Sequence record: OL362273.1 | From: Escherichia phage 6949 | Direction: 5' to 3' (one strand) | Length of the DNA: 44,371 nt | Shown: positions 1 through 40,091 of the stretch, in pieces | How positions within the stretch are numbered: position 1 is the stretch's first letter | How the letters are laid out: every line of letters starts with the position of its first letter | Position numbers and translations under genes: made by a program | The notes under the pieces: generated by a model | Databases searched by the model: none | The model's input: only the letters and a program-made list of their open reading frames with translations | What the model was told of the DNA's origin: nothing

Positions 1-195
1 ATGATTAACTCCGAACTGGTAGATAGTGGTGTGAAGCTTGCGCCACCTGCACTCGTATCAGGTGGGTACTTCCTCGGTATCAGTTGGGATAATTGGGTGT
101 TAATAGCAACATTCATTTATACCGTGTTGCAAATTGGGGACTGGTTTTATAATAAGTTCAAGATTTGGAGGGAGAAGCGTGAGCGTACACAATAA
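1..195 (+). CDS. Holin (T7 gp17.5-like, class II)
   Basis: The 64 aa translation resembles T7 gp17.5 as I recall it (ELV..APP..G..FLGIS.D.W..IA.FIYTVLQIG), with a hydrophobic core and a basic C-terminal tail. It lies just upstream of the terminase genes, and its RBS AAGGAGGT sits at 44361-44368, the last bases of the permuted window. Confidence 0.7.
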   Translation: MINSELVDSGVKLAPPALVSGGYFLGISWDNWVLIATFIYTVLQIGDWFYNKFKIWREKRERTQ

Positions 196-478
196 ACATG
201 CAGCTACAGAGGATGAGGTTGGCATTCTGCATGGTGCTATTACCAAAATCTTCAATAAGAAAGCACAGGCAATACTGGACACTATAGAAGAAGACCCTGA
301 TGCAGCATTACATTTAGTGTCTGGTAAGGATATTGGTGCGATGTGTAAGTGGGTTCTTGATAACGGCATTACCGCCACACCTGCTGCACAGCAGGAAGAG
401 TCCAAGTTATCTAAGCGCCTCAAGGCTATCCGAGAGGCATCCAGTGGTAAGATAATTCAATTCACTAAGGAGGATTGA
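179..478 (+). CDS. Terminase small subunit (T7 gp18-like)
   Basis: The ORF lies directly upstream of the large terminase and overlaps it by a TGATG junction. I prefer the GTG start at 179 because it follows RBS GGAGGG (167-172). The track start at ATG 134 overlaps the holin by 62 nt and lacks an RBS. The assignment is by position and size only. Confidence 0.55.
   Translation: MSVHNKHAATEDEVGILHGAITKIFNKKAQAILDTIEEDPDAALHLVSGKDIGAMCKWVLDNGITATPAAQQEESKLSKRLKAIREASSGKIIQFTKED
270..292 (+). promoter_or_regulatory. Candidate SP6-type promoter inside the small terminase gene
   Basis: CAATACTGGACACTATA followed by GAAGAA. The core from -13 to +6 is perfect, and there are three mismatches in the upstream AT-rich part. 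Confidence 0.45.
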
Positions 479-4038: not shown

Positions 4039-4061
4039 ATTTACTGGACACTATAGAAGAG
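4039..4061 (+). promoter_or_regulatory. SP6-type phage promoter upstream of tailspike 1
   Basis: ATTTACTGGACACTATA followed by GAAGAG, with the predicted +1 G at 4056. A leader hairpin lies at 4072-4089. Confidence 0.8.
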
Positions 4062-6124: not shown

Positions 6125-7837
6125 ATGCTTCAAAGATTAAGTGCTTACTTGGTGAAGTACAAGAGTAAACTAACAGGTACTATTGAGCGCCTGCTATCTG
6201 ATAAACTATCGGATACAATAGATGTTGCGGATTTTGGAGTTACTCCATCTTCCAATGACAACAGGCAAGCACTTCAAGCTGCGTTCAATGCAGTCAGAGT
6301 GTTAGGTGGTGGCACTGTATTAGTCACTAAAGCTGGAAAATACAAACTCAGTGGTACTGTTGAGATATTTGCTAATACACACTTCAAGGTTGCTAAAGGT
6401 GTAACATTTGTACGTGACTACGAAACAGGAGATACGCTATTCAGATTATCACAAGGGCAAGCTAGTAATGTAACAGTCAGTGGAGGTATCTATGAAGGCA
6501 ATGGTCACACTAAGGGAGATACACCTTTTGTAGTATTTGCATCTACTAGTAATAATGATTTGAAGTTTGAAGGCATAACAGTTAACAATGTAGTGGACTA
6601 CCACGCCATAGATTTAGCAGATTGGAACAACGTAGTTATTCGTGATTGTAAATTCCTAGGTTTTAAGAATACAGGCAGTCGTAACTTCTCAGAGGCTATA
6701 CAGTTAGACCCAGGTCTTATTACAGTTGGTCACTATGTGCAGTCAAGTGGTATGCTGGTGGAGAATTGCTATGCTGGTCCAAACATAGAATCAGGGTTTG
6801 GAGGTTATGGTGCACTAATTGGAAATCACGCCTCAGCTTACGGTGTACAGGACAACAATATCCGTATCTTGAATTGCACTACAGATGGTGCTCTCTTTGC
6901 AGGTGTACGTGTATTTAACTGGAAAAACTGGACAGTGCGTGGTTGCACATTTAGGAACTCTAATGCAAGAGGTGTCCATGTTACACCTGTCTCATCTCAG
7001 ACTAAACCGCAGGGTACTCGACAAGGTAATATTGTAGATTGCACTTTTGATGGCGTAAGGACACCAGTGCTAATTGCTGCACCATCTTGGCCTTTTACCG
7101 ATATTAGTGACATTTGGCATGACCATATTGAAATTTCTAATAATACTATGATCCTCACAGAGGATGTATCCTATGGTGTAGATGCAAGGTGGTGTAAGAA
7201 TTTAATTGTAAAAGGTAATACAGGCTCTGGTGGCTTAGGGTTAATAGGTTTACGCTTTGGGACAAAATACCACATCGAAGGTAATACTTGGGAAAACGGA
7301 AGAGGTAGTGGGATTTGGTTAGGTGAGTCTGATGCTACTACATTCATTGGTACTGGTTTATCAGGAGAAGGTATACTTAGTCGTAATATCTTCTCTAAAT
7401 TAGGGCAATATGGTATTCATGTAAACTGCAAGGCTAGCGGTCTAGTGATTAAAGCCAATAATATGAAGGAAGTATCTACAGATGAAGCAGGTAGGCACTT
7501 CATTAGTATAAACACAGGGGCTAACAACATCCTAGTAGAAGGTAATATTGGAGTAGACGGAGAAAGCCCTAACAAGCCAAGCCTTGGTATTCGTGTTACT
7601 TCTTCTTGTTCCAATATTAAACTCATTGGCAATGATTGCTATGGCACACAGGCGCCTCAGAATAACCAAGGAGTTGGTTCTAGTACGGTGATTGTTTATG
7701 GACTAAATGGCAACCCTACAACTTTAGGCGTAGGTGCACCTGTAGGCTCTTTAGCAACTGATATCAATGGTTCTGGTGGTAGTACATTGTACGTTAAAGA
7801 ATCTGGTACATCTGCTCAAGGTTGGGTTGCAAAGTAG
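6125..7837 (+). CDS. Tailspike 2: pectate-lyase-like right-handed beta-helix depolymerase
   Basis: RBS GAGGAGG precedes ATG 6125. The 570 aa protein has repetitive beta-helix coils (NNVVIRDCKF, IRILNCTTDG, WTVRGCTF, NIVDCTFDG, IKLIGNDCYG) and no C-terminal chaperone domain. Confidence 0.75.
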   Translation: MLQRLSAYLVKYKSKLTGTIERLLSDKLSDTIDVADFGVTPSSNDNRQALQAAFNAVRVLGGGTVLVTKAGKYKLSGTVEIFANTHFKVAKGVTFVRDYETGDTLFRLSQGQASNVTVSGGIYEGNGHTKGDTPFVVFASTSNNDLKFEGITVNNVVDYHAIDLADWNNVVIRDCKFLGFKNTGSRNFSEAIQLDPGLITVGHYVQSSGMLVENCYAGPNIESGFGGYGALIGNHASAYGVQDNNIRILNCTTDGALFAGVRVFNWKNWTVRGCTFRNSNARGVHVTPVSSQTKPQGTRQGNIVDCTFDGVRTPVLIAAPSWPFTDISDIWHDHIEISNNTMILTEDVSYGVDARWCKNLIVKGNTGSGGLGLIGLRFGTKYHIEGNTWENGRGSGIWLGESDATTFIGTGLSGEGILSRNIFSKLGQYGIHVNCKASGLVIKANNMKEVSTDEAGRHFISINTGANNILVEGNIGVDGESPNKPSLGIRVTSSCSNIKLIGNDCYGTQAPQNNQGVGSSTVIVYGLNGNPTTLGVGAPVGSLATDINGSGGSTLYVKESGTSAQGWVAK

Positions 7838-7848
7838 TAGGAAGCTGA

Positions 7849-7998
7849 ATGCCATTAATCAAATCAGTTAAGCAAAGTGCTGTACGCCAGAACACAGAAG
7901 GGCTTATTCAATCAGGACGTGACCCTAAGCAAGCCTATGCCATTGCCAAGGATGTACAACGTCGTGTTATGAAGAAACCTTCTGCATCTTCTGCGTAG
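7849..7998 (+). CDS. Small basic hypothetical protein (49 aa)
   Basis: This ORF is below the track cutoff. RBS AGGAAG precedes ATG 7849. The translation is MPLIKSVKQSAVRQNTEGLIQSGRDPKQAYAIAKDVQRRVMKKPSASSA. Confidence 0.3.
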   Translation: MPLIKSVKQSAVRQNTEGLIQSGRDPKQAYAIAKDVQRRVMKKPSASSA

Positions 7999-8067
7999 CA
8001 GGTTAATATCTTAGTATAAACAAGGGCAGACTTAGGTTTGTCCTTAGTGTATTCCAAAGGAGGTAAC

Positions 8068-8196
8068 ATGCTGAAAGATGGTTGGGTTTCATATGACCCT
8101 ACAGACCCTAAGAATTGGCTACAGGTTATCGCTATAGCTTGTGCAGGTAGCCTATTGGCTGCCCTGATGTATTCATTATGGATGTACACAAAGTAA
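8068..8196 (+). CDS. Small membrane protein (42 aa)
   Basis: RBS AAGGAGGT lies 3 nt upstream of ATG 8068. The protein has one hydrophobic helix (LQVIAIACAGSLLAALMYSLWMY). It is the last ORF before the presumed genome end. Confidence 0.4.
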   Translation: MLKDGWVSYDPTDPKNWLQVIAIACAGSLLAALMYSLWMYTK

Positions 8197-8231
8197 CCAA
8201 AGTCAAAATTTTGATGTAGGCGTGTGTCAGC

Positions 8232-8420
8232 TCTCTCGCCCTCGCCCTCGCCGGGTTGTCCCCATAGGGTGGCCTGAGGGAATCCGTCTTCGACGGGCAT
8301 GGCTGATGTACTCCTTGGATAGTACAAGGGAGGCGGAGGGAACGCCTAGGGAGGCCTAGGAATGGCTTAGTGGTGGACAAGGTGATTACCTTAGTGAAGC
8401 CTCTTAGTGCATTCCTGAGG
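8232..8420. repeat. Probable genome terminus and terminal-repeat region (one collapsed copy)
   Basis: TCTCTCGCCCTCGCCCTCGCCGGGTTGTCCCCATAGGG at 8232 parallels the T7 left end as I recall it (TCTCACAGTG...CCCCCATAGGGGG). The region is non-coding and the first early genes lie downstream. The exact boundaries cannot be set from one collapsed copy. Confidence 0.4.
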
Positions 8421-8794
8421 CCATTCAGGGCTTTTATGAGGTATTGACAGGGTGGATGGGCGTGGGCTATCTGTTCGTTTCGTTCACTCCGCTTGCGCTA
8501 CGTTCACTCGCTCACGTGTACCTTATGCTATTACTTGATGGATAGCTTAGGTTATAGCTTAGTGGCCTACCTTAGTTATAACCTTAGTGCATAGCTTAGT
8601 ATCAGCTTAGTAGTGTACCTTAGTAAGTCTTAGTGTCTTCTCTTAGTGATTGCACATGCAAGCATGTAAGATGCCATTAGGTCGCGGTCGGTAGACCGCT
8701 ACAGAAGGAGAATAGTAATAAGATGCAGTAGGAGGAACACCAGAAACCTAGCCAACCTAGCCTATCCTAGCTCTGTATCTATTGCTTTTCCTTA

Positions 8795-8810
8795 GTCTAA
8801 CATGTGAGAC
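8795..8810. repeat. Palindrome family copy, degenerate (GTCTAACATGTGAGAC)
   Basis: One mismatch from a perfect 16 bp palindrome. Its flank CTAGGTTGTCTCACATG (read on the minus strand) matches the copy at 14411-14428. Confidence 0.4.
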
Positions 8811-8844
8811 AACCTAGATTTATCTTAGTGATGATATCTTAGTG

Positions 8845-8876
8845 TTGACAAGGCCATCTCAATATAATACTATTCA
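8845..8876 (+). promoter_or_regulatory. Candidate host sigma70 early promoter
   Basis: A perfect TTGACA at 8845-8850 is followed by a TATAATACTAT block. Spacing to the exact TATAAT is only 12 bp, so the working -10 is more likely TACTAT or AATACT at 15-17 bp. It sits upstream of the first early genes. Confidence 0.35.
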
Positions 8877-9016
8877 TCACGTAGGCAGCACTGAGGTGCT
8901 TAGTAGCCAGCTAGTAAGGCATACGAAGAGACTAGCGCTTACATTGCTCTTTAACAATTTGCTTAGTGTAACCTATGTATGCCGTGGTCAATTACTTATT
9001 GAATGAGGGATTAACT

Positions 9017-9196
9017 ATGACATTAAACAACCGTGAACTATCCGTTCTCTTCACTCTGTTGTGCTACATGATTCGTAAAAACGAATTGCTTACAGATGAC
9101 GAGTTAGCCTTGTATCACCGCTTTCTTAACGAAGGTTGGACCGATACAGTTAATCAATACCGTAACATGATAGATGAGTTGAGGGAGGGTAAATAA
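9017..9196 (+). CDS. Early hypothetical protein
   Basis: RBS GAGGGA precedes ATG 9017, which is in frame within track ORF 8975-9196. It is the first gene of the early region. Confidence 0.5.
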   Translation: MTLNNRELSVLFTLLCYMIRKNELLTDDELALYHRFLNEGWTDTVNQYRNMIDELREGK

Positions 9197-9420
9197 TGTA
9201 TCAGCATGAGGTTTTCTTTGAGTCAGCTAGTGAAGCTATCCGCTTCCTTGAAGATATGCTACAAGCTGGCGTAGGTGTTGATGTACATCACTTCCTACTA
9301 GATTACGACACTGAATATCACCGAGTTACCTTAGTATCTGAGTATGACAACCAAGTCATTACTGAGTACCTAGGCAGTGAAGATTACGATTACGATGAAG
9401 TAATCACGACAAATCTCTAA
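9196..9420 (+). CDS. Early acidic hypothetical protein
   Basis: RBS GAGGGAGGG precedes the ATG, which is coupled to the upstream stop through TAATG. The C-terminus is acidic and aromatic-rich. Confidence 0.55.
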   Translation: MYQHEVFFESASEAIRFLEDMLQAGVGVDVHHFLLDYDTEYHRVTLVSEYDNQVITEYLGSEDYDYDEVITTNL

Positions 9421-9549
9421 ATTAACTGATGACAGCCACGGCATACAAGGTTACATTAAGCATCAAGACGGCGACGTCTTTAAACATCCCGCTCTTTAAC
9501 AATACGGTTTGTGTCTTGATAGGCTAACTAACTAACTAAGGTAATTATC

Positions 9550-9660
9550 ATGAAAGGGTTAATTTGTGTAGAACGTATGGTCAATGGTAAACTTGAAATT
9601 TTACCACTGGAAAACCAATCTAGCTTCAAAGAGTGGTATGGCTGTTTCTCACTGATTTAA
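9550..9660 (+). CDS. Small early ORF (36 aa)
   Basis: RBS TAAGGT precedes ATG 9550, itself preceded by a CTAACTAACTAA stop-rich spacer. The ORF is below the track cutoff. Confidence 0.35.
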   Translation: MKGLICVERMVNGKLEILPLENQSSFKEWYGCFSLI

Positions 9661-9811
9661 GGTAAAGGCTGGCACTAGTCAGCCTATCAAGGCGCAAACC
9701 AAGCTCTTTAACAATTTGGATGGTAGCTTCTTAGTCTGGATAGGTTAAACCTAGGAGATTCTCTTGAGTCTCCTATAATGTAACCTAACTAACTAAATGA
9801 GGATTAACAAC

Positions 9812-10171
9812 ATGGCTATGTCTAATATGACTTACTCTCAGGTTTACAACACTGCTCATGCTGCATTAGTTGAACGTATCTGGAATGATGCTATTGATTG
9901 TATTGATAACGCACATGATGCAATCCATGATGCGGCGGATAGTGCTGTACCAATCTATTATGCTGACATCTTCTCCGTGATGGCGAGTGAAGGAATTGAT
10001 CATTTCTTCGAAGACTCCGGCCTGATGCCAGACACTAAGGATGTAACCGTAGTATTGCAAGCCCGTATCTATGAGCAACTCACAGTTGATCTATGGGAAC
10101 GTGTTCAGTATATGATTGTTGAATACGTCAACTCCGCCGAATATTTAGAAAAAGAAGAAGAGGAAGAATAA
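9812..10171 (+). CDS. ocr: Ocr (T7 gp0.3-like DNA mimic, anti-restriction)
   Basis: The translation from ATG 9812 is MAMSNMTY...[41 protein letters not shown]...[15 protein letters not shown] with an acidic tail. These blocks match my recollection of T7 Ocr. RBS AGGA lies upstream. Confidence 0.85.
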
Positions 10172-16608: not shown

Positions 16609-16628
16609 TTAGTGTATTTATCAGGGCT

Positions 16629-16646
16629 TGTCTCACACGTGAGACA
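16629..16646. repeat. Palindrome family copy (TGTCTCAC-AC-GTGAGACA)
   Basis: Two 8 bp inverted arms separated by 2 bp, extendable with a G-U pair to about 11 bp, followed by CTCTTATT. Confidence 0.55.
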
Positions 16647-16684
16647 GGCTCTTATTAAGTACATTAAATAACTGGAGATTGATT

Positions 16685-17587: not shown

Positions 17588-17764
17588 ATGCAGAATAAAC
17601 ATAGTCTTAGAATGTTCGATGGTCATGAAGACCTGCAAGCCAAGATTACTAACCAAGCCTTCCTGTTCGCACAGTTAACTATGGCTGAGGCCAAGAAGAA
17701 TAGTCTCACTCGTGAACAGGTTATCAAGGAAAGTGAAGTGAAACGTAAGATTCGCAGTCGATAA
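17588..17764 (+). CDS. Small hypothetical protein (58 aa)
   Basis: An ATG-start ORF with a weak RBS, ending just before a palindrome copy. It is below the track cutoff. Confidence 0.4.
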   Translation: MQNKHSLRMFDGHEDLQAKITNQAFLFAQLTMAEAKKNSLTREQVIKESEVKRKIRSR

Positions 17765-17773
17765 GTCAAGGGT

Positions 17774-17791
17774 TGTCTCACGTGTGAGACA
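17774..17791. repeat. Palindrome family copy (TGTCTCAC-GT-GTGAGACA)
   Basis: Two 8 bp inverted arms separated by 2 bp, followed by GCCTTTAT. Confidence 0.55.
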
Positions 17792-17820
17792 GCCTTTATC
17801 ATGTTGATTGGAGGTGCATT

Positions 17821-33955: not shown

Positions 33956-36357
33956 TGGAAGTACAAGGTTCATTAGGTAGACAAATCCAAGGGATTAGCC
34001 AGCAGCCGCCAGCGGTACGCTTGGATGGTCAGTGCACAGCTATGGTTAATATGATACCTGATGTAGTGAATGGTACTCAATCACGCATGGGTACAACTCA
34101 TATTGCAAAGATACTTGATGCGGGGACTGATGACATGGCTACCCATCATTATCGCAGAGGTGATGGTGATGAAGAGTATTTCTTCACGTTGAAGAAAGGA
34201 CAAGTTCCTGAGATATTTGATAAGTATGGGCGCAAATGTAATGTGACTTCACAAGATGCACCTATGACCTACCTCTCTGAGGTTGTTAATCCAAGGGAAG
34301 ATGTGCAATTCATGACGATAGCTGATGTTACTTTCATGCTTAATCGTAGGAAAGTAGTTAAAGCTAGTAGCAGTAAGTCACCTAAAGTTGGAAACAAAGC
34401 CATTGTGTTTTGTGCGTATGGTCAATATGGTACATCTTATTCCATTGTAATTAATGGGGCCAACGCTGCTAGTTTTAAAACACCGGATGGTGGAAGTGCA
34501 GACCATGTTGAACAAATTCGAACTGAACGTATCACTTCTGAATTGTACTCTAAGTTGCAGCAATGGAGCGGTGTGAGTGACTATGAAATACAAAGAGACG
34601 GTACTAGTATATTTATCGAGAGACGGGATGGTGCTAGCTTTACAATAACAACCACCGATGGTGCAAAAGGTAAGGACTTAGTGGCTATCAAGAATAAAGT
34701 TAGCTCTACTGACCTACTCCCTTCTCGTGCGCCTGCTGGTTATAAAGTACAAGTGTGGCCTACTGGCAGCAAACCTGAGTCTCGTTACTGGCTGCAAGCT
34801 GAGCCTAAAGAGGGAAACCTTGTGTCTTGGAAAGAAACAATAGCTGCTGATGTATTACTTGGGTTTGATAAAGGCACAATGCCTTACATTATTGAACGTA
34901 CAGATATCATCAACGGCATAGCTCAATTCAAGATAAGACAAGGTGATTGGGAAGATCGTAAAGTAGGGGATGACTTGACTAACCCTATGCCCTCTTTTAT
35001 TGATGAGGAAGTACCCCAGACAATAGGTGGAATGTTCATGGTGCAGAACCGCCTATGCTTTACAGCAGGTGAAGCGGTTATTGCTTCTCGTACATCCTAC
35101 TTCTTCGATTTCTTTCGTTATACGGTTATCTCTGCATTGGCAACTGACTCCTTTGATATTTTCTCAGATGCTAGTGAAGTCTACCAGCTAAAACATGCAG
35201 TGACCTTAGATGGCGCTACCGTGTTGTTCTCTGATAAGTCACAATTCATACTGCCAGGCGATAAGCCTTTAGAGAAGTCAAATGCACTGCTTAAGCCTGT
35301 TACAACATTTGAAGTGAACAATAAAGTGAAGCCAGTAGTAACTGGTGAATCGGTAATGTTTGCCACTAATGATGGTTCTTACTCTGGTGTACGAGAGTTC
35401 TATACAGACTCTTATAGTGACACTAAGAAGGCACAAGCAATCACAAGTCATGTGAATAAACTCATCGAAGGTAACATTACCAACATGGCAGCAAGCACCA
35501 ATGTCAACAGGTTACTTGTCACTACCGATAAGTATCGTAACATAATCTACTGCTACGATTGGTTATGGCAAGGAACAGACCGTGTACAATCAGCATGGCA
35601 TGTATGGAAGTGGCCTATAGGTACAAAGGTGCGAGGTATGTTTTATTCTGGTGAATTACTTTACCTGCTCCTTGAGCGAGGAGATGGCGTGTATCTGGAG
35701 AAGATGGACATGGGTGATGCACTAACCTATGGTTTGAATGGCCGCATCAGAATGGATAGGCAAGCAGAGTTAGTCTTCAAGCATTTCAAAGCAGAAGATG
35801 AATGGGTATCTGAGCCGCTCCCTTGGGTTCCTACTAACCCAGAACTTTTAGATTGCATCTTAATCGAGGGTTGGGATTCATATATTGGCGGCTCTTTCTT
35901 ATTCAAGTACAACCCTAGTGACAATACTTTGTCTACAACCTTTGATATATATGATGACAGCCATGTAAAAGCGAAGGTTATTGTTGGTCAGATTTACCCT
36001 CAAGAGTTTGAACCTACGCCTGTGGTTATCAGAGACAATCAAGACCGTGTATCCTACATTGATGTACCAGTTGTAGGATTGGTTCACCTTAATCTTGACA
36101 TGTACCCCGATTTCTCCGTAGAAGTTAAGAATGTGAAGAGTGGTAAAGTACGTAGAGTATTAGCGTCAAACCGTATAGGTGGTGCTCTCAATAATACAGT
36201 AGGCTATGTTGAACCGAGAGAAGGTGTCTTCAGATTTCCACTGAGAGCTAAGAGCATGGATGTTGTTTATCGTATTATTGTAGAGTCACCTCACACATTC
36301 CAGCTTCGTGATATTGAGTGGGAAGGGAGCTACAATCCAACCAAAAGGAGGGTCTAA
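33955..36357 (+). CDS. Tail tubular protein B (T7 gp12-like)
   Basis: The N-terminus LGRQIQGISQQPPAVRLDGQ carries the GISQQP motif seen in T7 gp12. The size is about 800 aa. Confidence 0.85.
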   Translation: MEVQGSLGRQIQGISQQPPAVRLDGQCTAMVNMIPDVVNGTQSRMGTTHIAKILDAGTDDMATHHYRRGDGDEEYFFTLKKGQVPEIFDKYGRKCNVTSQDAPMTYLSEVVNPREDVQFMTIADVTFMLNRRKVVKASSSKSPKVGNKAIVFCAYGQYGTSYSIVINGANAASFKTPDGGSADHVEQIRTERITSELYSKLQQWSGVSDYEIQRDGTSIFIERRDGASFTITTTDGAKGKDLVAIKNKVSSTDLLPSRAPAGYKVQVWPTGSKPESRYWLQAEPKEGNLVSWKETIAADVLLGFDKGTMPYIIERTDIINGIAQFKIRQGDWEDRKVGDDLTNPMPSFIDEEVPQTIGGMFMVQNRLCFTAGEAVIASRTSYFFDFFRYTVISALATDSFDIFSDASEVYQLKHAVTLDGATVLFSDKSQFILPGDKPLEKSNALLKPVTTFEVNNKVKPVVTGESVMFATNDGSYSGVREFYTDSYSDTKKAQAITSHVNKLIEGNITNMAASTNVNRLLVTTDKYRNIIYCYDWLWQGTDRVQSAWHVWKWPIGTKVRGMFYSGELLYLLLERGDGVYLEKMDMGDALTYGLNGRIRMDRQAELVFKHFKAEDEWVSEPLPWVPTNPELLDCILIEGWDSYIGGSFLFKYNPSDNTLSTTFDIYDDSHVKAKVIVGQIYPQEFEPTPVVIRDNQDRVSYIDVPVVGLVHLNLDMYPDFSVEVKNVKSGKVRRVLASNRIGGALNNTVGYVEPREGVFRFPLRAKSMDVVYRIIVESPHTFQLRDIEWEGSYNPTKRRV

Positions 36358-37079: not shown

Positions 37080-40027
37080 TGGCAATTGAGCGACAAGCAG
37101 TACAAGGTCTGCCACAAGTGCAGGCCACTTCTCCTAATGTCATGACCTTTGCACCTCAACAAGTGGGAGGTGTGGAGGCTGGCGTGGCTTCTACCTCCGG
37201 TAGTAGGTTTATCGAAGACCTTATTCGTGCAGCAAGCAGCGTGGCTGATGTTACCACTGGTATCCTTAATCAGAAGATTGAGGAAGATAAGGTTGTTCAA
37301 ATGGAACGGGCATATAACGGATTAATGCCTTCTGAGGATGCAACTCGTGGTGGCGCTCGTGCTAACATGCTTGTCAAAGCTCAACTGCTAGCTAATGATG
37401 AAGCAGCACGAATGAAAGACATGGCTACTCGTTTCCAAGGAACGGATGACGAATGGACACAACTTATGGTTGACTCTCGTAATGAGATGCAGAATAAGCT
37501 GTTCCAGCAATACCCTGAGTTGCAAGGTGACAAAGATACTATGCGTATGGTCACTAATGTCTTCCAAGAACAGCAGCCTCAGATTTGGGCTACACGAACC
37601 CAGCATAAACTTGACCGTGAACAAGCAGACCGTGAGGATACCTTTGACGGGCGAGTGGCTTCTACTTGGGATTCTAATATTGACCCTGAAGCCTCTGGCT
37701 ATGCTTTACAGGAACGAATCCGCGAAGGTCTTACTCAAGGATTACTACCTGAACAGATGCACAAGAAGTTAGTCCAGCGAGCAATTTCACTTGCACAAGG
37801 CGGTGATGTTAGCATGGCTGAAGCCCTGAAGTATGTGAAGGACGATAAGGGTGTTTCTGTTTATGCTAAGAATCCACAGCTTATCACAGCCATCACTAGT
37901 GGTAATGCAGTTTGGGCTAGGAATAATGTAGCTGATGTAACTCGTATGTCTTTCGAAGTTAAAGAATCCTACCTTGCAGGTGATTTAACTGATGAAGAAC
38001 TGTTGGAACGAGCACAGCACATTAATAATCTGACAGGTAACTCTGTCTTCTCTAATCCAGAGCTAGAGGCACTGATGCGCCAACGGGCTAAGCAGAATGC
38101 AGAGCTAGGTGCAATGCAGGATATGCGACGTGAGCTTTACTCTGACCGCCTGACTGGCTTCCAAGGTAAGACTGATAAAGAGAAGAAGGCTTACATTGAT
38201 GTTATCAAACAGGATAGCCAACTTTATGCAGACCAGCAAATCAAACAACGTGGCTTGGACCCTTACAGTCAAGAGGCTGAAGCTATTCGTGGTGCAGTGG
38301 AAGTGCAGCGCCTGCAATTCATGAACTCCAAAGGCTTAGTGGATGATACCTTTGAGTCTCGTATCAAAGCCATGGAATCTATGCTATCGCCTGAGCACTT
38401 TGCCAAGGGCGAACCACAGGAGTTGATGACTATTCGCCAGTTGTGGGAACAGTTGCCAGAAGAGAGCCGAGGTGTCTTTGGTGACACGGTGAATGGCTAC
38501 ATGGATAACTACAACACTGCACTACAAATGGGAGAGACACCTTTGCAGGCTGCAAGGTTTGCGCGTGAAGCACAGCAGAAATTCTCTCGTACTGAGAAGG
38601 AAACCAAGAAGTTCAACTCAGCTATTGGAGATGCACTGGATGAGGTATCTGGTGCTGGCTGGTTTGATGGTAAAACCGAAGTGTCAGACTTAGGTAAAGC
38701 TATTGCGGAAGAAGAGTTACGAGCTAAGGCCAATATGTTGTGGTCTAGTGGTATGCGTAACATGGATTCTATCAAGAGGGCTTTAATTACTTGGGGCAAT
38801 AAACGCTACACTCAAACAGAGGATGCAAAGACTTCCGGTGGCTATTTCATTAAAGGTGATTACACTTCTGCATCTGATATGCTTATGTCAGTTGGGAAAG
38901 GCGTAAACCCTACCGATGTACCTCTTGCGCTTGGTAGGTATGTAGAAACACAGATGCCAGAATTGAAGAAGGAGCTTCAAGAGTGGGAAACTAAAGATGA
39001 TATATACATTGATTACAATGAACAGAAAGGTACTTTCGTGATTCGTGCTGGTGCAGCAGGTCGCCCTCTTTCTGGAGTAATCCCTGTAACCTCTTTAGAT
39101 ACCACTTCACTACTAGATTCTGCCTATCAGAAGAAAGTAGAGGAACGAGATAAAGGCGAGTATGTTCACCCTTATCGTACAGATATTGGTGCACAAGAGC
39201 CTATGCCAGCTAAACCAACTGCCAAAGATATTGGTAAATTTGGACTAGCTAACTTCCTCATGTCTTCTGCTTTTGCTTCTGGTGAGAATCTGCCTTCTAA
39301 CTTCGAGATTAACTATCGAGGTAATATGCAACAATTCTATGACAAGCTAGCTATGGATGAGAATAAAGATAAAGTTGGCTTTAATAAGGCAACTGGAACC
39401 TTTACTCCATATAAAGATGCTCACGGTGAGTCTATCGGTTACGGTCATTTCTTAACGGAAGAAGAGAAGCGAAACGGGTATATTAAGATTGGTGATGAAC
39501 TAGTTCCCTATCGAGGGTCTATGTCTCAGCTTACAGAGAGCAAGGCTCGCGCTCTTATGGAGCAAGATGCCAAGAAGCATGTGCCTCCTACTCGTGACTG
39601 GAAGATTCCGTTTGACCAGATGCATCCTGCACAGCAACGTGGCTTGATGGATTTAACCTACAATTTAGGTAAAGGTGGAATCCAGAACTCACCGCGTGCT
39701 CTTGCTGCATTCAAAGCTGGTAAGCTTACGGAAGGCTTTATCGAAATGCTGGGCACTGCATCAAGTGAAGGTAAGCGTATCCATGGTTTACTGAAGCGAC
39801 GCGCTGAGGCATACAATATGGCATCTGCTGGTGGTGTGCCTAAGATTACCGAAGTGGAGACTCGTGAAGATGGCTCCATGTGGGTTAGGTTTGGTGGACC
39901 TATGCCAGCAGGTTCTGTCTCGGCATGGACTCATAAACGTATTGGCGCGGATGGTTGGTATCAGGTTTATGAGGCTGCACCTACCAAGTTAGCTAAAGGT
40001 TCTAAGGTGGGTAAATTTAAGTTGTAG
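37079..40027 (+). CDS. Internal virion (ejection) protein with C-terminal lysozyme-like peptidoglycan hydrolase domain
   Basis: A 982 aa ORF in the internal-protein block. The C-terminal region has YKDAHGESIGYGHFLTEEE, which resembles the T4 lysozyme core (YKDTEGYYTIGIGHLLT). Confidence 0.75.
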   Translation: MAIERQAVQGLPQVQATSPNVMTFAPQQVGGVEAGVASTSGSRFIEDLIRAASSVADVTTGILNQKIEEDKVVQMERAYNGLMPSEDATRGGARANMLVKAQLLANDEAARMKDMATRFQGTDDEWTQLMVDSRNEMQNKLFQQYPELQGDKDTMRMVTNVFQEQQPQIWATRTQHKLDREQADREDTFDGRVASTWDSNIDPEASGYALQERIREGLTQGLLPEQMHKKLVQRAISLAQGGDVSMAEALKYVKDDKGVSVYAKNPQLITAITSGNAVWARNNVADVTRMSFEVKESYLAGDLTDEELLERAQHINNLTGNSVFSNPELEALMRQRAKQNAELGAMQDMRRELYSDRLTGFQGKTDKEKKAYIDVIKQDSQLYADQQIKQRGLDPYSQEAEAIRGAVEVQRLQFMNSKGLVDDTFESRIKAMESMLSPEHFAKGEPQELMTIRQLWEQLPEESRGVFGDTVNGYMDNYNTALQMGETPLQAARFAREAQQKFSRTEKETKKFNSAIGDALDEVSGAGWFDGKTEVSDLGKAIAEEELRAKANMLWSSGMRNMDSIKRALITWGNKRYTQTEDAKTSGGYFIKGDYTSASDMLMSVGKGVNPTDVPLALGRYVETQMPELKKELQEWETKDDIYIDYNEQKGTFVIRAGAAGRPLSGVIPVTSLDTTSLLDSAYQKKVEERDKGEYVHPYRTDIGAQEPMPAKPTAKDIGKFGLANFLMSSAFASGENLPSNFEINYRGNMQQFYDKLAMDENKDKVGFNKATGTFTPYKDAHGESIGYGHFLTEEEKRNGYIKIGDELVPYRGSMSQLTESKARALMEQDAKKHVPPTRDWKIPFDQMHPAQQRGLMDLTYNLGKGGIQNSPRALAAFKAGKLTEGFIEMLGTASSEGKRIHGLLKRRAEAYNMASAGGVPKITEVETREDGSMWVRFGGPMPAGSVSAWTHKRIGADGWYQVYEAAPTKLAKGSKVGKFKL

Positions 40028-40043
40028 TATCTAACTCAAGGCT

Positions 40044-40061
40044 TGTCTCACATGTGAGACA
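40044..40061. repeat. Palindrome family copy (TGTCTCACATGTGAGACA, perfect 18 bp)
   Basis: A perfect 18 bp palindrome between the two large internal virion protein genes, followed by GGTCTTTAT. Confidence 0.55.
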
Positions 40062-40091
40062 GGTCTTTATGATAGGCACTATGGAGGAATT

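Follow-up and report, generated by a model that had tools for sequence, protein, structure and literature searches.

The genome record of Escherichia phage 6949 (OL362273.1), a stretch of 44,371 nucleotides referred to here as the window, is interrupted by a gap in its coding sequence between positions 8197 and 9016. The locus raises the question of whether the gap marks the place where the linear genome begins and ends, brought into the interior of the record by circular permutation as an earlier note made from the sequence alone had proposed, or whether it is an ordinary intergenic region. It also raises the question of what the many short repeats within it might do. We consider it very probable that the genome ends of a K1-5-like Vectrevirus are seen here in their concatemer-junction form, as a collapsed direct terminal repeat (DTR) followed by the non-coding leading end.

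Identity of the phage and layout of the window

As judged from sequence comparison, the window is the complete, circularly permuted genome of a K1-5-like Vectrevirus, of the subfamily Molineuxvirinae in the T7 supergroup. It is collinear with K1-5 (AY370674), in which the end and the start of the window adjoin with 99.6% identity over the join. The alignments place window 7832–8469 on K1-5 43748–44385 and window 8236–9815 on K1-5 1–1578. The order in the window is thus right-end unique DNA of K1-5, one DTR and left-end unique DNA of K1-5, which is the layout of a concatemer junction and, together with the contiguous join, bears out the proposed circular permutation. The K1-5 record, in contrast, is linear with two repeat copies where the window is a rotated circular assembly with one, and the tailspike module at 6178–7832 of the window also differs. 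Over the terminus region, identity is 98% to GenBank OZ035816 and 98.4% to Vectrevirus LI10P5, and matches are found in 113 related phage records.

K1-5 and SP6 (AY370673) share with the window the junction sequences on both sides, the non-coding layout of the left end, the heptamer, the early promoter and the first gene. The terminase is identical: the small subunit (window 179–478) has 100% identity to K1-5 gp39 and the large subunit 100% identity to K1-5 gp40 over the first 400 residues, which makes the enzyme T7-type. The coding gap itself is real, since the last and first coding sequences of K1-5 map to either side of it.

8069–8196, + strand: last gene of the linear genome, homologue of K1-5 gene 49 (from mapping of the last K1-5 coding sequence)
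9017–9196, + strand: first gene of the linear genome, homologue of K1-5 gene 1 (from mapping of the first K1-5 coding sequence)

Open reading frames annotated across 8197–9016 are spurious; several deposited relatives carry such "hypothetical proteins". As a genome end of the K1-5/SP6 type the region is real and already well known, and it adds nothing new on K1-5-like phages; the K1-5 genome, including its ends, is said to have been described by Scholl et al. in 2004.

A single, collapsed terminal repeat

8232–8469, + strand: single collapsed copy of the DTR, 238 bp if the end is SP6/T7-like (TCTC...), 234 bp (8236–8469) by the K1-5 record

Exact DTRs are present in the linear records of K1-5 (234 bp), SP6 (174 bp), K1E (288 bp) and phD2B (262 bp), and the window copy is 96% identical to that of K1-5. 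In window coordinates these records start at 8232 (SP6), 8234 (K1E), 8235 (phD2B) and 8236 (K1-5), and the repeats of all four end with GGGCTA, followed by TCTGTTC, corresponding to 8469. Starts within 8232–8236 and a common end uphold the claim that a genome terminus lies here. Among the deposited relatives the left end varies by up to 4 nt, and its exact position here is uncertain to that extent; 8232 agrees with SP6, T7 and T3, all of which begin TCTC, and the sequence TCTCTCGCCCTCGCCCTCGCCGGGTTGTCCCCATAGGGTGG, which the earlier note took for the left end, starts at exactly this position. From homology to the records of these relatives we infer the termini of the 6949 isolate.

A second copy of the DTR was not found in the window: BLAST of 8232–8469 against the whole window matches only itself, and there is no long direct repeat. 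The earlier reading of a single copy, left by an assembler that had collapsed a direct terminal repeat, fits this result and the position of the one DTR between the two kinds of unique DNA. The assembler would have fused the two copies into one, closed the sequence into a circle and shifted its starting point, so that 8232/8236–8469 is the only copy in the record. The correct form is obtained by re-linearising at ~8232 and adding a second copy of 8232–8469 at the right end, which gives a genome of ~44.6 kb.

Among relatives, in which the repeat ranges from 174 to 288 bp, both ends of the DTR are kept and the interior is variable with indels; the conservation maxima coincide with the two repeat boundaries. 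This pattern bears on the alternative of headful (pac) packaging with permuted ends, for which the region would be merely an intergenic control region and its resemblance to the ends of T7 incidental. A single repeat copy is also expected from a truly circularly permuted genome, and the pipeline annotation of one related record calls the large terminase "P22-like headful". That terminase is, however, identical to the K1-5 enzyme over 400 residues, and conservation peaks precisely at both repeat boundaries. Headful packaging implies variable redundancy and no fixed termini, whereas the deposited records of six or more relatives are linear, with exact, fixed repeats and common boundaries. The virions of close relatives hold linear DNA with an exact DTR of ~234 bp, and DTRs of the group have been mapped experimentally, in one relative by Bal31 digestion and run-off sequencing (PMC4837284). 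We therefore regard headful packaging as extremely improbable.

Conserved signals at the two boundaries

8200–8231, + strand: right-end unique flank AAGTCAAAATTTTGATGTAGGCGTGTGTCAGC, directly left of the left-end cut site, conserved in distant genera
8235–8252, + strand: (CTCGCC)x3 at the extreme left end, kept as CTCG(G/C)CCTCG(G/C)CC across genera
8260–8269, + strand: inverted repeat CCCCATAGGG, 25–29 nt from the end; the T7 counterpart is CCCCCATAGGGGG at nt 26
8468–8475, + strand: TATCTGTT, a match to the class II pause/termination core (HATCTGTT) known for T7-type RNA polymerases, adjoining the right DTR boundary
8476–8545, + strand: A-poor, pyrimidine-rich spacer with two copies of CGTTCACTC (8481, 8501), 57% identity among relatives

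The left end carries a conserved signature, a TCTC start with a C-run, ATAG and a G-run ~25 nt inside. The inverted repeat CCCCATAGGG is located at nt 29 counted from 8232, or at nt 25 from the K1-5-type end at 8236. The parallel with the left end of T7, which the earlier note had drawn, is correct: TCTC opens the T7 record, in which CCCCCATAGGGGG follows at nt 26, and in T3 the position that matches CCCCATAGGG of the window is occupied by a C-run and ATAG.

Distant genera (Proteus, Klebsiella, Pectobacterium and Lelliottia phages) keep only window 8200–8276 and a G-GGG-TATCTGT block. The first of these consists of the flank 8200–8231 and the first ~40 nt of the DTR, the distant matches covering query positions 1–77 only, and the two parts together probably belong to the terminase recognition/cleavage signal. 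A scan of IMG/VR viral contigs with the conserved flank gave 92 matches, of which only 12 are real junctions.

Two families of small repeats had been suggested as part of the packaging or end-processing signal, CGCCCT in three copies and CGTTCACTC in two. The second count is right and the first is not: CGCCCT occurs twice (8237, 8243), and the unit present three times is CTCGCC (8235, 8241, 8247). Since the CTCGCC triplet is within the most conserved block, it is a plausible component of the end-processing signal. The CGTTCACTC pair is in a tract of 57% identity that is kept solely as A-poor (A fraction 0.04–0.13 over 8476–8545 in 12 of 14 relatives), which makes a specific signal improbable. 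The DTR was also considered as the site of a sigma-70 promoter, and this was rejected; the TTGACA at 8444 is conserved, but the -10 element would be CTATCT or TATCTG, and a promoter scan gave no call.

At the right boundary, ATCTGTT has no second copy on the + (coding) strand anywhere in the window, and the motif has the same placement in SP6, K1-5, K1E, phD2B, T3 and T7. It directly follows the DTR in T7 (nt 161–167, the DTR ending in CCCT immediately before it) and in T3 (nt 232–238); ATCTGTC or ATCTATT takes its place in some genera. Downstream of the motif is CGTTTCGTTCAC, which is A-poor and pyrimidine-rich with no clean T run. The variant motifs and the only moderately T-rich tract after the motif (CGTTTCGTT) count against the reading. 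The T7 junction site likewise has no long T run and acts as a pause, and polymerases of the K1-5/SP6 type have been reported to respond to ATCTGTT. According to the literature on T7-type RNA polymerase, HATCTGTT is the consensus of the class II signal, and such a signal is carried by the T7 concatemer junction, where the polymerase pauses and interacts with gp18/gp19. Our literature search for pausing at concatemer junctions gave evidence for T7 only and none for K1-5/SP6-type polymerases at ATCTGTT.

The heptamer array

8366–8409, + strand: three CTTAGTG copies inside the DTR (8366, 8390, 8403)
8546–8648, + strand: main heptamer array, nine CTTAG(T/G) units at a spacing of 10–13 bp, all in one orientation

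Between 8000 and 9000 the + strand has 18 copies of the hexamer CTTAGT and the − strand has 0, where the rest of the window would predict 0.42 (Poisson P ~ 1e-23). Across the window there are 36 copies of CTTAGTR, against 15.3 ± 3.6 in shuffles, and Tandem Repeats Finder reports an array of period 12 at 8542–8624. The enrichment seen earlier is thus genuine, although the figure of at least 15 copies of CTTAGT(G/A) was slightly too high: the strict heptamer is present 13 times inside 8232–8960, plus one copy at 8962–8968, and it is the hexamer that numbers 15 in this interval (16 with the copy at 8962). Further copies are found at the right end just upstream of the last gene, CTTAGT(A/G) at 8010 and 8043 and CTTAGG at 8030.

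This arrangement is that of the short repeats of T7, the CCTAAAG arrays reportedly described by Dunn and Studier in 1983. In both phages three heptamers are located in the DTR, an array in a single orientation with a period of 12–13 bp is located just internal to the left repeat, and a few copies are near the right end, so the array was rightly called a counterpart of the T7 repeats. Because the motif here is CTTAGT(G/A) and differs from CCTAAAG, the array is an architectural analogue and not a sequence homologue. It is also set further in, with a ~77-nt A-poor spacer between pause motif and array compared with ~15 nt in T7. With the same architecture, phD2B uses CATGATG and Klebsiella Gansuvirus-like phages use CATAGTG. 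The motif turns over between genera (CCTAAAG, CTTAGTG, CATAGTG, CATGATG) and the architecture is fixed; in the genomes compared, the heptamer motif is genus-specific. A literature search for the heptamers and for "SRL/SRR" gave no relevant description, the SP6 and K1-5 genome papers being outside its reach. The Klebsiella Gansuvirus-like relatives additionally have a cluster of 8–9 DnaA-box sequences inside the repeat, which may belong to the machinery of the heptamer array.

Tandem arrays whose repeat number varies slightly among relatives, as it does here, can be read as neutral, non-functional products of replication slippage or low complexity. The conservation of the array already contradicts this reading: in ten relatives the cores have 95% pairwise identity against 57% for the spacers (P = 4e-14), and by this comparison the heptamer cores are under purifying selection. 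Against neutrality there is also the occurrence of every copy on one strand and the persistence of the architecture, with different motifs, in T7, T3 and several genera of Molineuxvirinae. We regard a neutral origin as very improbable.

Hairpins, early promoter and boxA

8654–8667, + strand: hairpin 1, ACATGC-AA-GCATGT, then AAGATGC; stem sequence varies with complementarity kept, four of six pairs compensatory
8684–8699, + strand: hairpin 2, GCGGTC-GGTA-GACCGC, then AAGATGC; covarying, three of six pairs compensatory, 98% of cells paired
8795–8810, no strand assigned: near-palindrome GTCTAACATGTGAGAC upstream of the early promoter; the same palindrome family occurs elsewhere in the genome
8824–8873, + strand: two CTTAGTG copies (8824, 8838) adjoining the sigma-70 early promoter (TTGACA 8845–8850, 17-nt spacer, TACTAT 8868–8873)
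8945–8957, + strand: TGCTCTTTAACAA, rrn-type boxA antitermination element in the early leader; further copies at 9491 and 9703

Taken together, the two hairpins have 97.5% of cells paired in the relatives, with compensatory changes at 7 of the 12 pairs. These covarying hairpins set the window apart from T7 and T3, and they may belong to the machinery of the heptamer array. An Rfam scan of 7800–9900 at E <= 1 found no family, and the early leader (8878–9016) folds no better than shuffled sequences (z = −0.74).

In a different reading, the left end would hold a replication origin or priming region made up of the array, the hairpins and the palindrome, with iteron-like heptamers bound by an initiator or by the primase-helicase. 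In its favour, the repeats are arrayed on one strand and adjoin the two hairpins of conserved structure, with AAGATGC after each. A secondary origin is located near the left end of T7, and GCA, a trinucleotide that is frequent around the hairpins, is reportedly recognised by the SP6 primase. The heptamers themselves, however, have no GCA, and there is no phage promoter in 8232–9016, on which an origin of the T7 type would depend; the phiOL promoter at the left end of T7 has no equivalent here. We know of no initiator protein in the K1-5/SP6 group, and in a paper on an SP6 relative the origin proposed for SP6 is located close to the DNA polymerase gene. An origin at this site seems to us quite unlikely.

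In the early promoter region, TAGTGTTGACA is invariant in the relatives. The candidate boxA TGCTCTTTAACAA is located ~70 nt downstream of the promoter (8845–8873), and TGCTCTTTAACAATTT at 8945–8960 is identical over 16 nt to the boxA of E. coli rrnB (sequence from PMC2176067). Unlike the rrn element, the copy in the window is in a phage early leader. The same boxA 13-mer is found in T7 (nt 816) and T3 (nt 784), likewise downstream of sigma-70 promoters.

A further reading is that the heptamers are bound by a host or early phage protein, which would act on the leading end after injection, for example by organising or protecting the DNA or by modulating the early promoter. Copies reach and adjoin the -35 element (CTTAGTG-TTGACA, 8838–8850) and flank promoter and boxA, and in T7-like phages entry into the cell starts with the left-end region. 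Most copies, however, are located inside the DTR and 200–300 bp ahead of the promoter, and others (8010, 8043) are at the right end, the last to enter. The Klebsiella phages ULIP33 (CTTAGTG) and FBKp16 (CATAGTG) have similar promoter regions, and a motif that differs between phages of the same host genus argues against a conserved host factor. We think a role of this kind unlikely.

A possible role for the array in processing

The most likely role of the heptamer array, which we put forward tentatively and at somewhat less than an even chance, is that of a putative directional multi-site protein-binding platform for concatemer processing or for ending packaging. Short oriented repeats likewise adjoin the terminase cleavage site in lambda (cosB/cosQ) and in the pac-site arrays bound by small terminase. 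By this analogy a role in positioning or reprogramming the terminase would be plausible here, although there is no sequence or protein homology to either system.

Two other ideas were not borne out. The first, that heptamer class co-varies with the small terminase, held in seven genomes (same-motif pairs >=77% identical, different-motif pairs <=75%) and was broken by a wider tblastn search. Pectobacterium phages of the PP1/POP72 type have CTTAGTG arrays and a small terminase 69% identical to that of the window, equal to the CATAGTG group (67–69%) and to phD2B with CATGATG (69%), so similarity of the small terminase does not track heptamer class. The array might instead serve genome entry, early transcription or replication. 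The second idea took the heptamer for part of a phage promoter, CTTAGTG in reverse complement resembling CACTATAG of the K1-5 promoter. It was rejected because the phD2B heptamer, CATGATG, is unrelated to the phD2B promoter GGGGCTACTATAGAAG; the orientation would also be opposite to that in T7 and T3.

By analogy with T7 and T3, the junction may work as follows. Late in infection the phage RNA polymerase would transcribe rightward into the junction and pause at TATCTGTT (8468–8475), and the paused complex would help to recruit the terminase. The terminase would cut the left boundary between GTGTCAGC and TCTCTCGCC, with CCCCATAGGG ~25 nt inside, and the right boundary just before or at ATCTGTT, and synthesis during processing would duplicate the repeat. 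The non-coding leading end downstream of the DTR would be injected first. Its order is the A-poor spacer, the one-stranded ~12-bp array of CTTAGT(G/A), the two structure-conserved hairpins, the palindrome, the strong sigma-70 early promoter, boxA and gene 1, and the rrn-type boxA would make host RNA polymerase resistant to termination.

Outside short shared blocks there is almost no sequence homology between the window and T7 or T3. The logic of the T7 junction, with its TCTC end, C-run palindrome, ATCTGTT edge and heptamer array, is nevertheless common to two subfamilies with almost no DNA similarity otherwise. To our knowledge, the function of the T7 short repeats has never been settled. On the analogy with lambda cosQ/cosB, the arrays at the ends of T7-supergroup genomes are candidate sequence-specific platforms to which a phage protein would bind, acting in one direction as concatemers are processed or packaging is brought to an end, a proposal that we regard as possible rather than probable. 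If it is true, the comparative set of motifs and arrays would offer a way to learn what the T7 short repeats do. The shared architecture, the conserved cores and the genus-specific motif make the function of these repeats experimentally approachable.

Genome identity and permutation

By megablast, the interval 8100–9100 matched 113 phage records, the top match being Vectrevirus LI10P5 at 98.4% identity, with K1-5 at 91%. K1-5 (AY370674) is collinear with the entire window except for a swapped tailspike segment at 6178–7832, and the terminases of the two are identical. A 1200-nt probe made of the final 600 and initial 600 bases of the window matched K1-5 34619–35818 unbroken, at 99.6% identity. 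Together these matches make the window a complete K1-5-like genome in circularly permuted form (Autographiviridae, Molineuxvirinae, Vectrevirus), starting at the beginning of K1-5 gene 38. The same permutation is found in 18 GenBank 'Vectrevirus' records, with the junction at ~8–8.7 kb. A 570-aa ORF at 6125–7837 occupies the tailspike position and, since segment 6178–7832 has no counterpart in K1-5, a receptor-binding module has probably been exchanged here.

The terminal repeat and its ends

The genome terminus that the earlier note proposed at 8232–8960 is real, and corresponds to the end structure already known for this phage genus. The sequence at 8232 reads as it was given, and the coding gap is present: the last gene of K1-5 maps to 8069–8196 and its first to 9017–9196. 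Exact terminal repeats are found in four independently deposited linear genomes (K1-5, 234 bp; SP6, 174 bp; K1E, 288 bp; Lelliottia phage phD2B, 262 bp) and are annotated in two further records, Raoultella phage P3a and phage Mt1B1_P10.

Left ends of the repeat in relatives (window coordinates)
8232: SP6
8234: K1E
8235: phD2B, P3a, Mt1B1_P10
8236: K1-5

The common repeat end, GGGCTA/TCTGTTC (slash, boundary), lies at 8469 in all four of the genomes checked directly (K1-5, SP6, K1E and phD2B). At the right end of K1-5 the bases 5' of the repeat (...GTGTCAGCTCTC) are identical to window 8220–8235. From these matched flanks and shared boundaries, the order in the window is therefore right-unique DNA, one repeat and left-unique DNA, as for a concatemer junction or an assembler-collapsed repeat; the window holds no second copy of the repeat, and the single copy and the collapse had both been proposed from the sequence. 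The parallel drawn with T7 also holds: the T7 record opens with TCTC and carries CCCCCATAGGGGG at nt 26, and the window has CCCCATAGGG 29 nt from 8232. A TCTC start is common to T7, T3 and SP6, and 8232 is therefore most likely the true left end, with an uncertainty of 4 nt. Among the small repeats that had been listed, CGTTCACTC does occur twice; the unit present three times is CTCGCC rather than CGCCCT. Scholl et al. in 2004 reportedly determined the ends of SP6 and K1-5 directly. For an SP6 relative, Bal31 digestion together with run-off sequencing placed the repeat experimentally (PMC4837284).

Conserved boundaries and a putative pause motif

Distant Molineuxvirinae (Proteus, Klebsiella, Pectobacterium and Lelliottia phages) keep similarity only to window 8200–8276, that is, the final 32 nt of right-end unique DNA and the initial ~45 nt of the repeat. 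Alignment of 14 repeats gave a conserved left block, CTCG(G/C)CCTCG(G/C)CC followed by GTCCCCATAGGG, and a conserved right block, G-GGG-TATCTGT, containing TATCTGTT (8468–8475). The interior is variable and indel-rich, which accounts for repeat lengths of 174–288 bp. ATCTGTT occurs once on the plus strand of the 44-kb window and once in each of SP6, K1-5 and phD2B; in T7 (repeat 1–160, motif 161–167) and T3 (1–231, 232–238) it directly follows the repeat.

Class II pause/termination signals of T7-type RNA polymerases have HATCTGTT as their core, and the paused polymerase–lysozyme complex is reported to contact gp18/gp19, starting maturation and packaging (PMC3276506). A K1-5-type polymerase may respond to TATCTGTT. 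The boundary is CT/ATCTGTT in T7 and T3 but CTA/TCTGTT in SP6-like records. Non-templated A addition makes the end ambiguous in run-off sequencing (PMC4925675), and this 1-nt shift may be only such an ambiguity.

A TTGACA at 8444–8449, 18 nt 5' of TATCTGTT, is kept in Vectrevirus, SP6 and Proteus phages and has no credible -10 element. In Proteus phage PTGBLG0005 (our locus L108), the right edge of the repeat, ~195–240 nt from the left end, carries two successive class II-like motifs, TTATCTGTTTCTTTT and TAATCTGTTTGTTTG, both with T runs.

In Klebsiella Gansuvirus-like phages, the presumed repeat interior holds 8–9 same-orientation copies of CTGTGGATAA, the reverse complement of the DnaA box TTATCCACA, ~60–300 nt past the conserved TCTCTCGG end. 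The records with this cluster (our loci in brackets) are FBKp16 (L105/L111), F5M1D (L106), K22PH164C1 (L112), VLCpiA2a (L114), K13PH07C1L (L115) and Koku (L116); the window's own repeat has no DnaA-box cluster of this kind. In K22PH164C1, the repeat is broken up by runs of 14–17 G, probably a sequencing or assembly artefact.

The heptamer array

Between 8000 and 9000, CTTAGT occurs 18 times on the plus strand and never on the minus strand, against 0.42 expected from the rest of the window (Poisson P ~1e-23), and Tandem Repeats Finder detects an array of period 12. The earlier count of at least 15 CTTAGT(G/A) was slightly high: strictly there are 13 in 8232–8960, and CTTAGTT and CTTAGTC are needed for more.

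Heptamer copies (plus strand, window coordinates)
8010, 8030, 8043: two to three right-end copies
8366, 8390, 8403: three CTTAGTG copies inside the repeat
8546–8648: main array, nine units at 10–13-bp spacings
8791, 8824, 8838, 8899, 8962: additional copies

In T7, CCTAAAG follows the same plan: three copies lie in the repeat, an array of 12–13-bp period begins at nt 176, and a few more copies precede the right repeat, like the right-end copies of the window. T3 resembles T7 in this. Across ten relatives the hexamer cores are in register and 95% identical, compared with 57% for the spacers (Mann–Whitney P = 4e-14), a contrast to be read with the caveat that repeats tend to act as anchors for the aligner. 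CTTAGTG is retained in Proteus phages, Pectobacterium phages and Klebsiella phage ULIP33; six Klebsiella Gansuvirus-like phages have CATAGTG, and phD2B has ten CATGATG at the equivalent place and no CTTAGT array.

Judged from these alignments, selection acts on the cores and the architecture is kept, and the presumably recognised sequence has changed between genera. Such a combination points to a sequence-specific, phage-encoded partner rather than a conserved host factor. A resemblance of the heptamer to phage promoters is broken by phD2B. Co-variation of heptamer class with the small terminase was promising in seven genomes and was lost in a wider search; Pectobacterium phages with CTTAGTG have a small terminase as divergent as in other motif classes. 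Neither explanation held across all the phages compared, and the function of the heptamer is therefore one that we infer. Our preferred reading, held tentatively and at somewhat less than even probability, is a directional protein-binding platform for concatemer processing or for ending packaging. Packaging of T7 DNA starts at the right end, and in that order the motor would come to the array immediately before the left repeat.

Hairpins, early promoter and boxA

A ~77-nt A-poor tract 3' of the putative pause motif keeps its composition and not its sequence.

Features from the array to the early region (window coordinates)
8654–8667, 8684–8699: two 6-bp hairpins between the array and the early promoter, each followed by AAGATGC
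8795–8810: near-palindrome of the family TTGTC(T/C)(C/A)ACA(C/T)GT(G/T)(A/G)GACA, in intergenic positions
8845–8873: sigma-70 promoter (TTGACA, 17-nt spacer, TACTAT), kept in relatives
8945–8957, 9491–9503, 9703–9715: three copies of GCTCTTTAACAA

The hairpin stems vary among five genera yet stay complementary, with 97.5% of cells paired (22–34% at slid control positions) and changes on both sides in 7 of 12 pairs. Both lie 5' of the only convincing host promoter in the region, whose -35 element is adjoined by a heptamer, and from this position the hairpins may function either as DNA or as RNA; the non-coding region has no phage promoter, the nearest upstream being at 4046. The palindrome family, perhaps a protein-binding site or a short hairpin, recurs at 16610–16655, 17755–17800 and 40025–40070 and at eight sites in phD2B (L009); in each of the genera examined, one copy lies just 5' of the early promoter. 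An Rfam scan of the region gave no matches.

TGCTCTTTAACAATTT (8945–8960) matches E. coli rrnB boxA at all 16 nt. At nt 816 of T7 and nt 784 of T3, the boxA 13-mer also precedes the first RNase III site. These copies point to antitermination by Nus factors when host RNA polymerase makes the early transcripts.

The practical value of these results lies in a corrected assembly and annotation, and the comparative data sharpen the question of what the heptamer array and the hairpins do.
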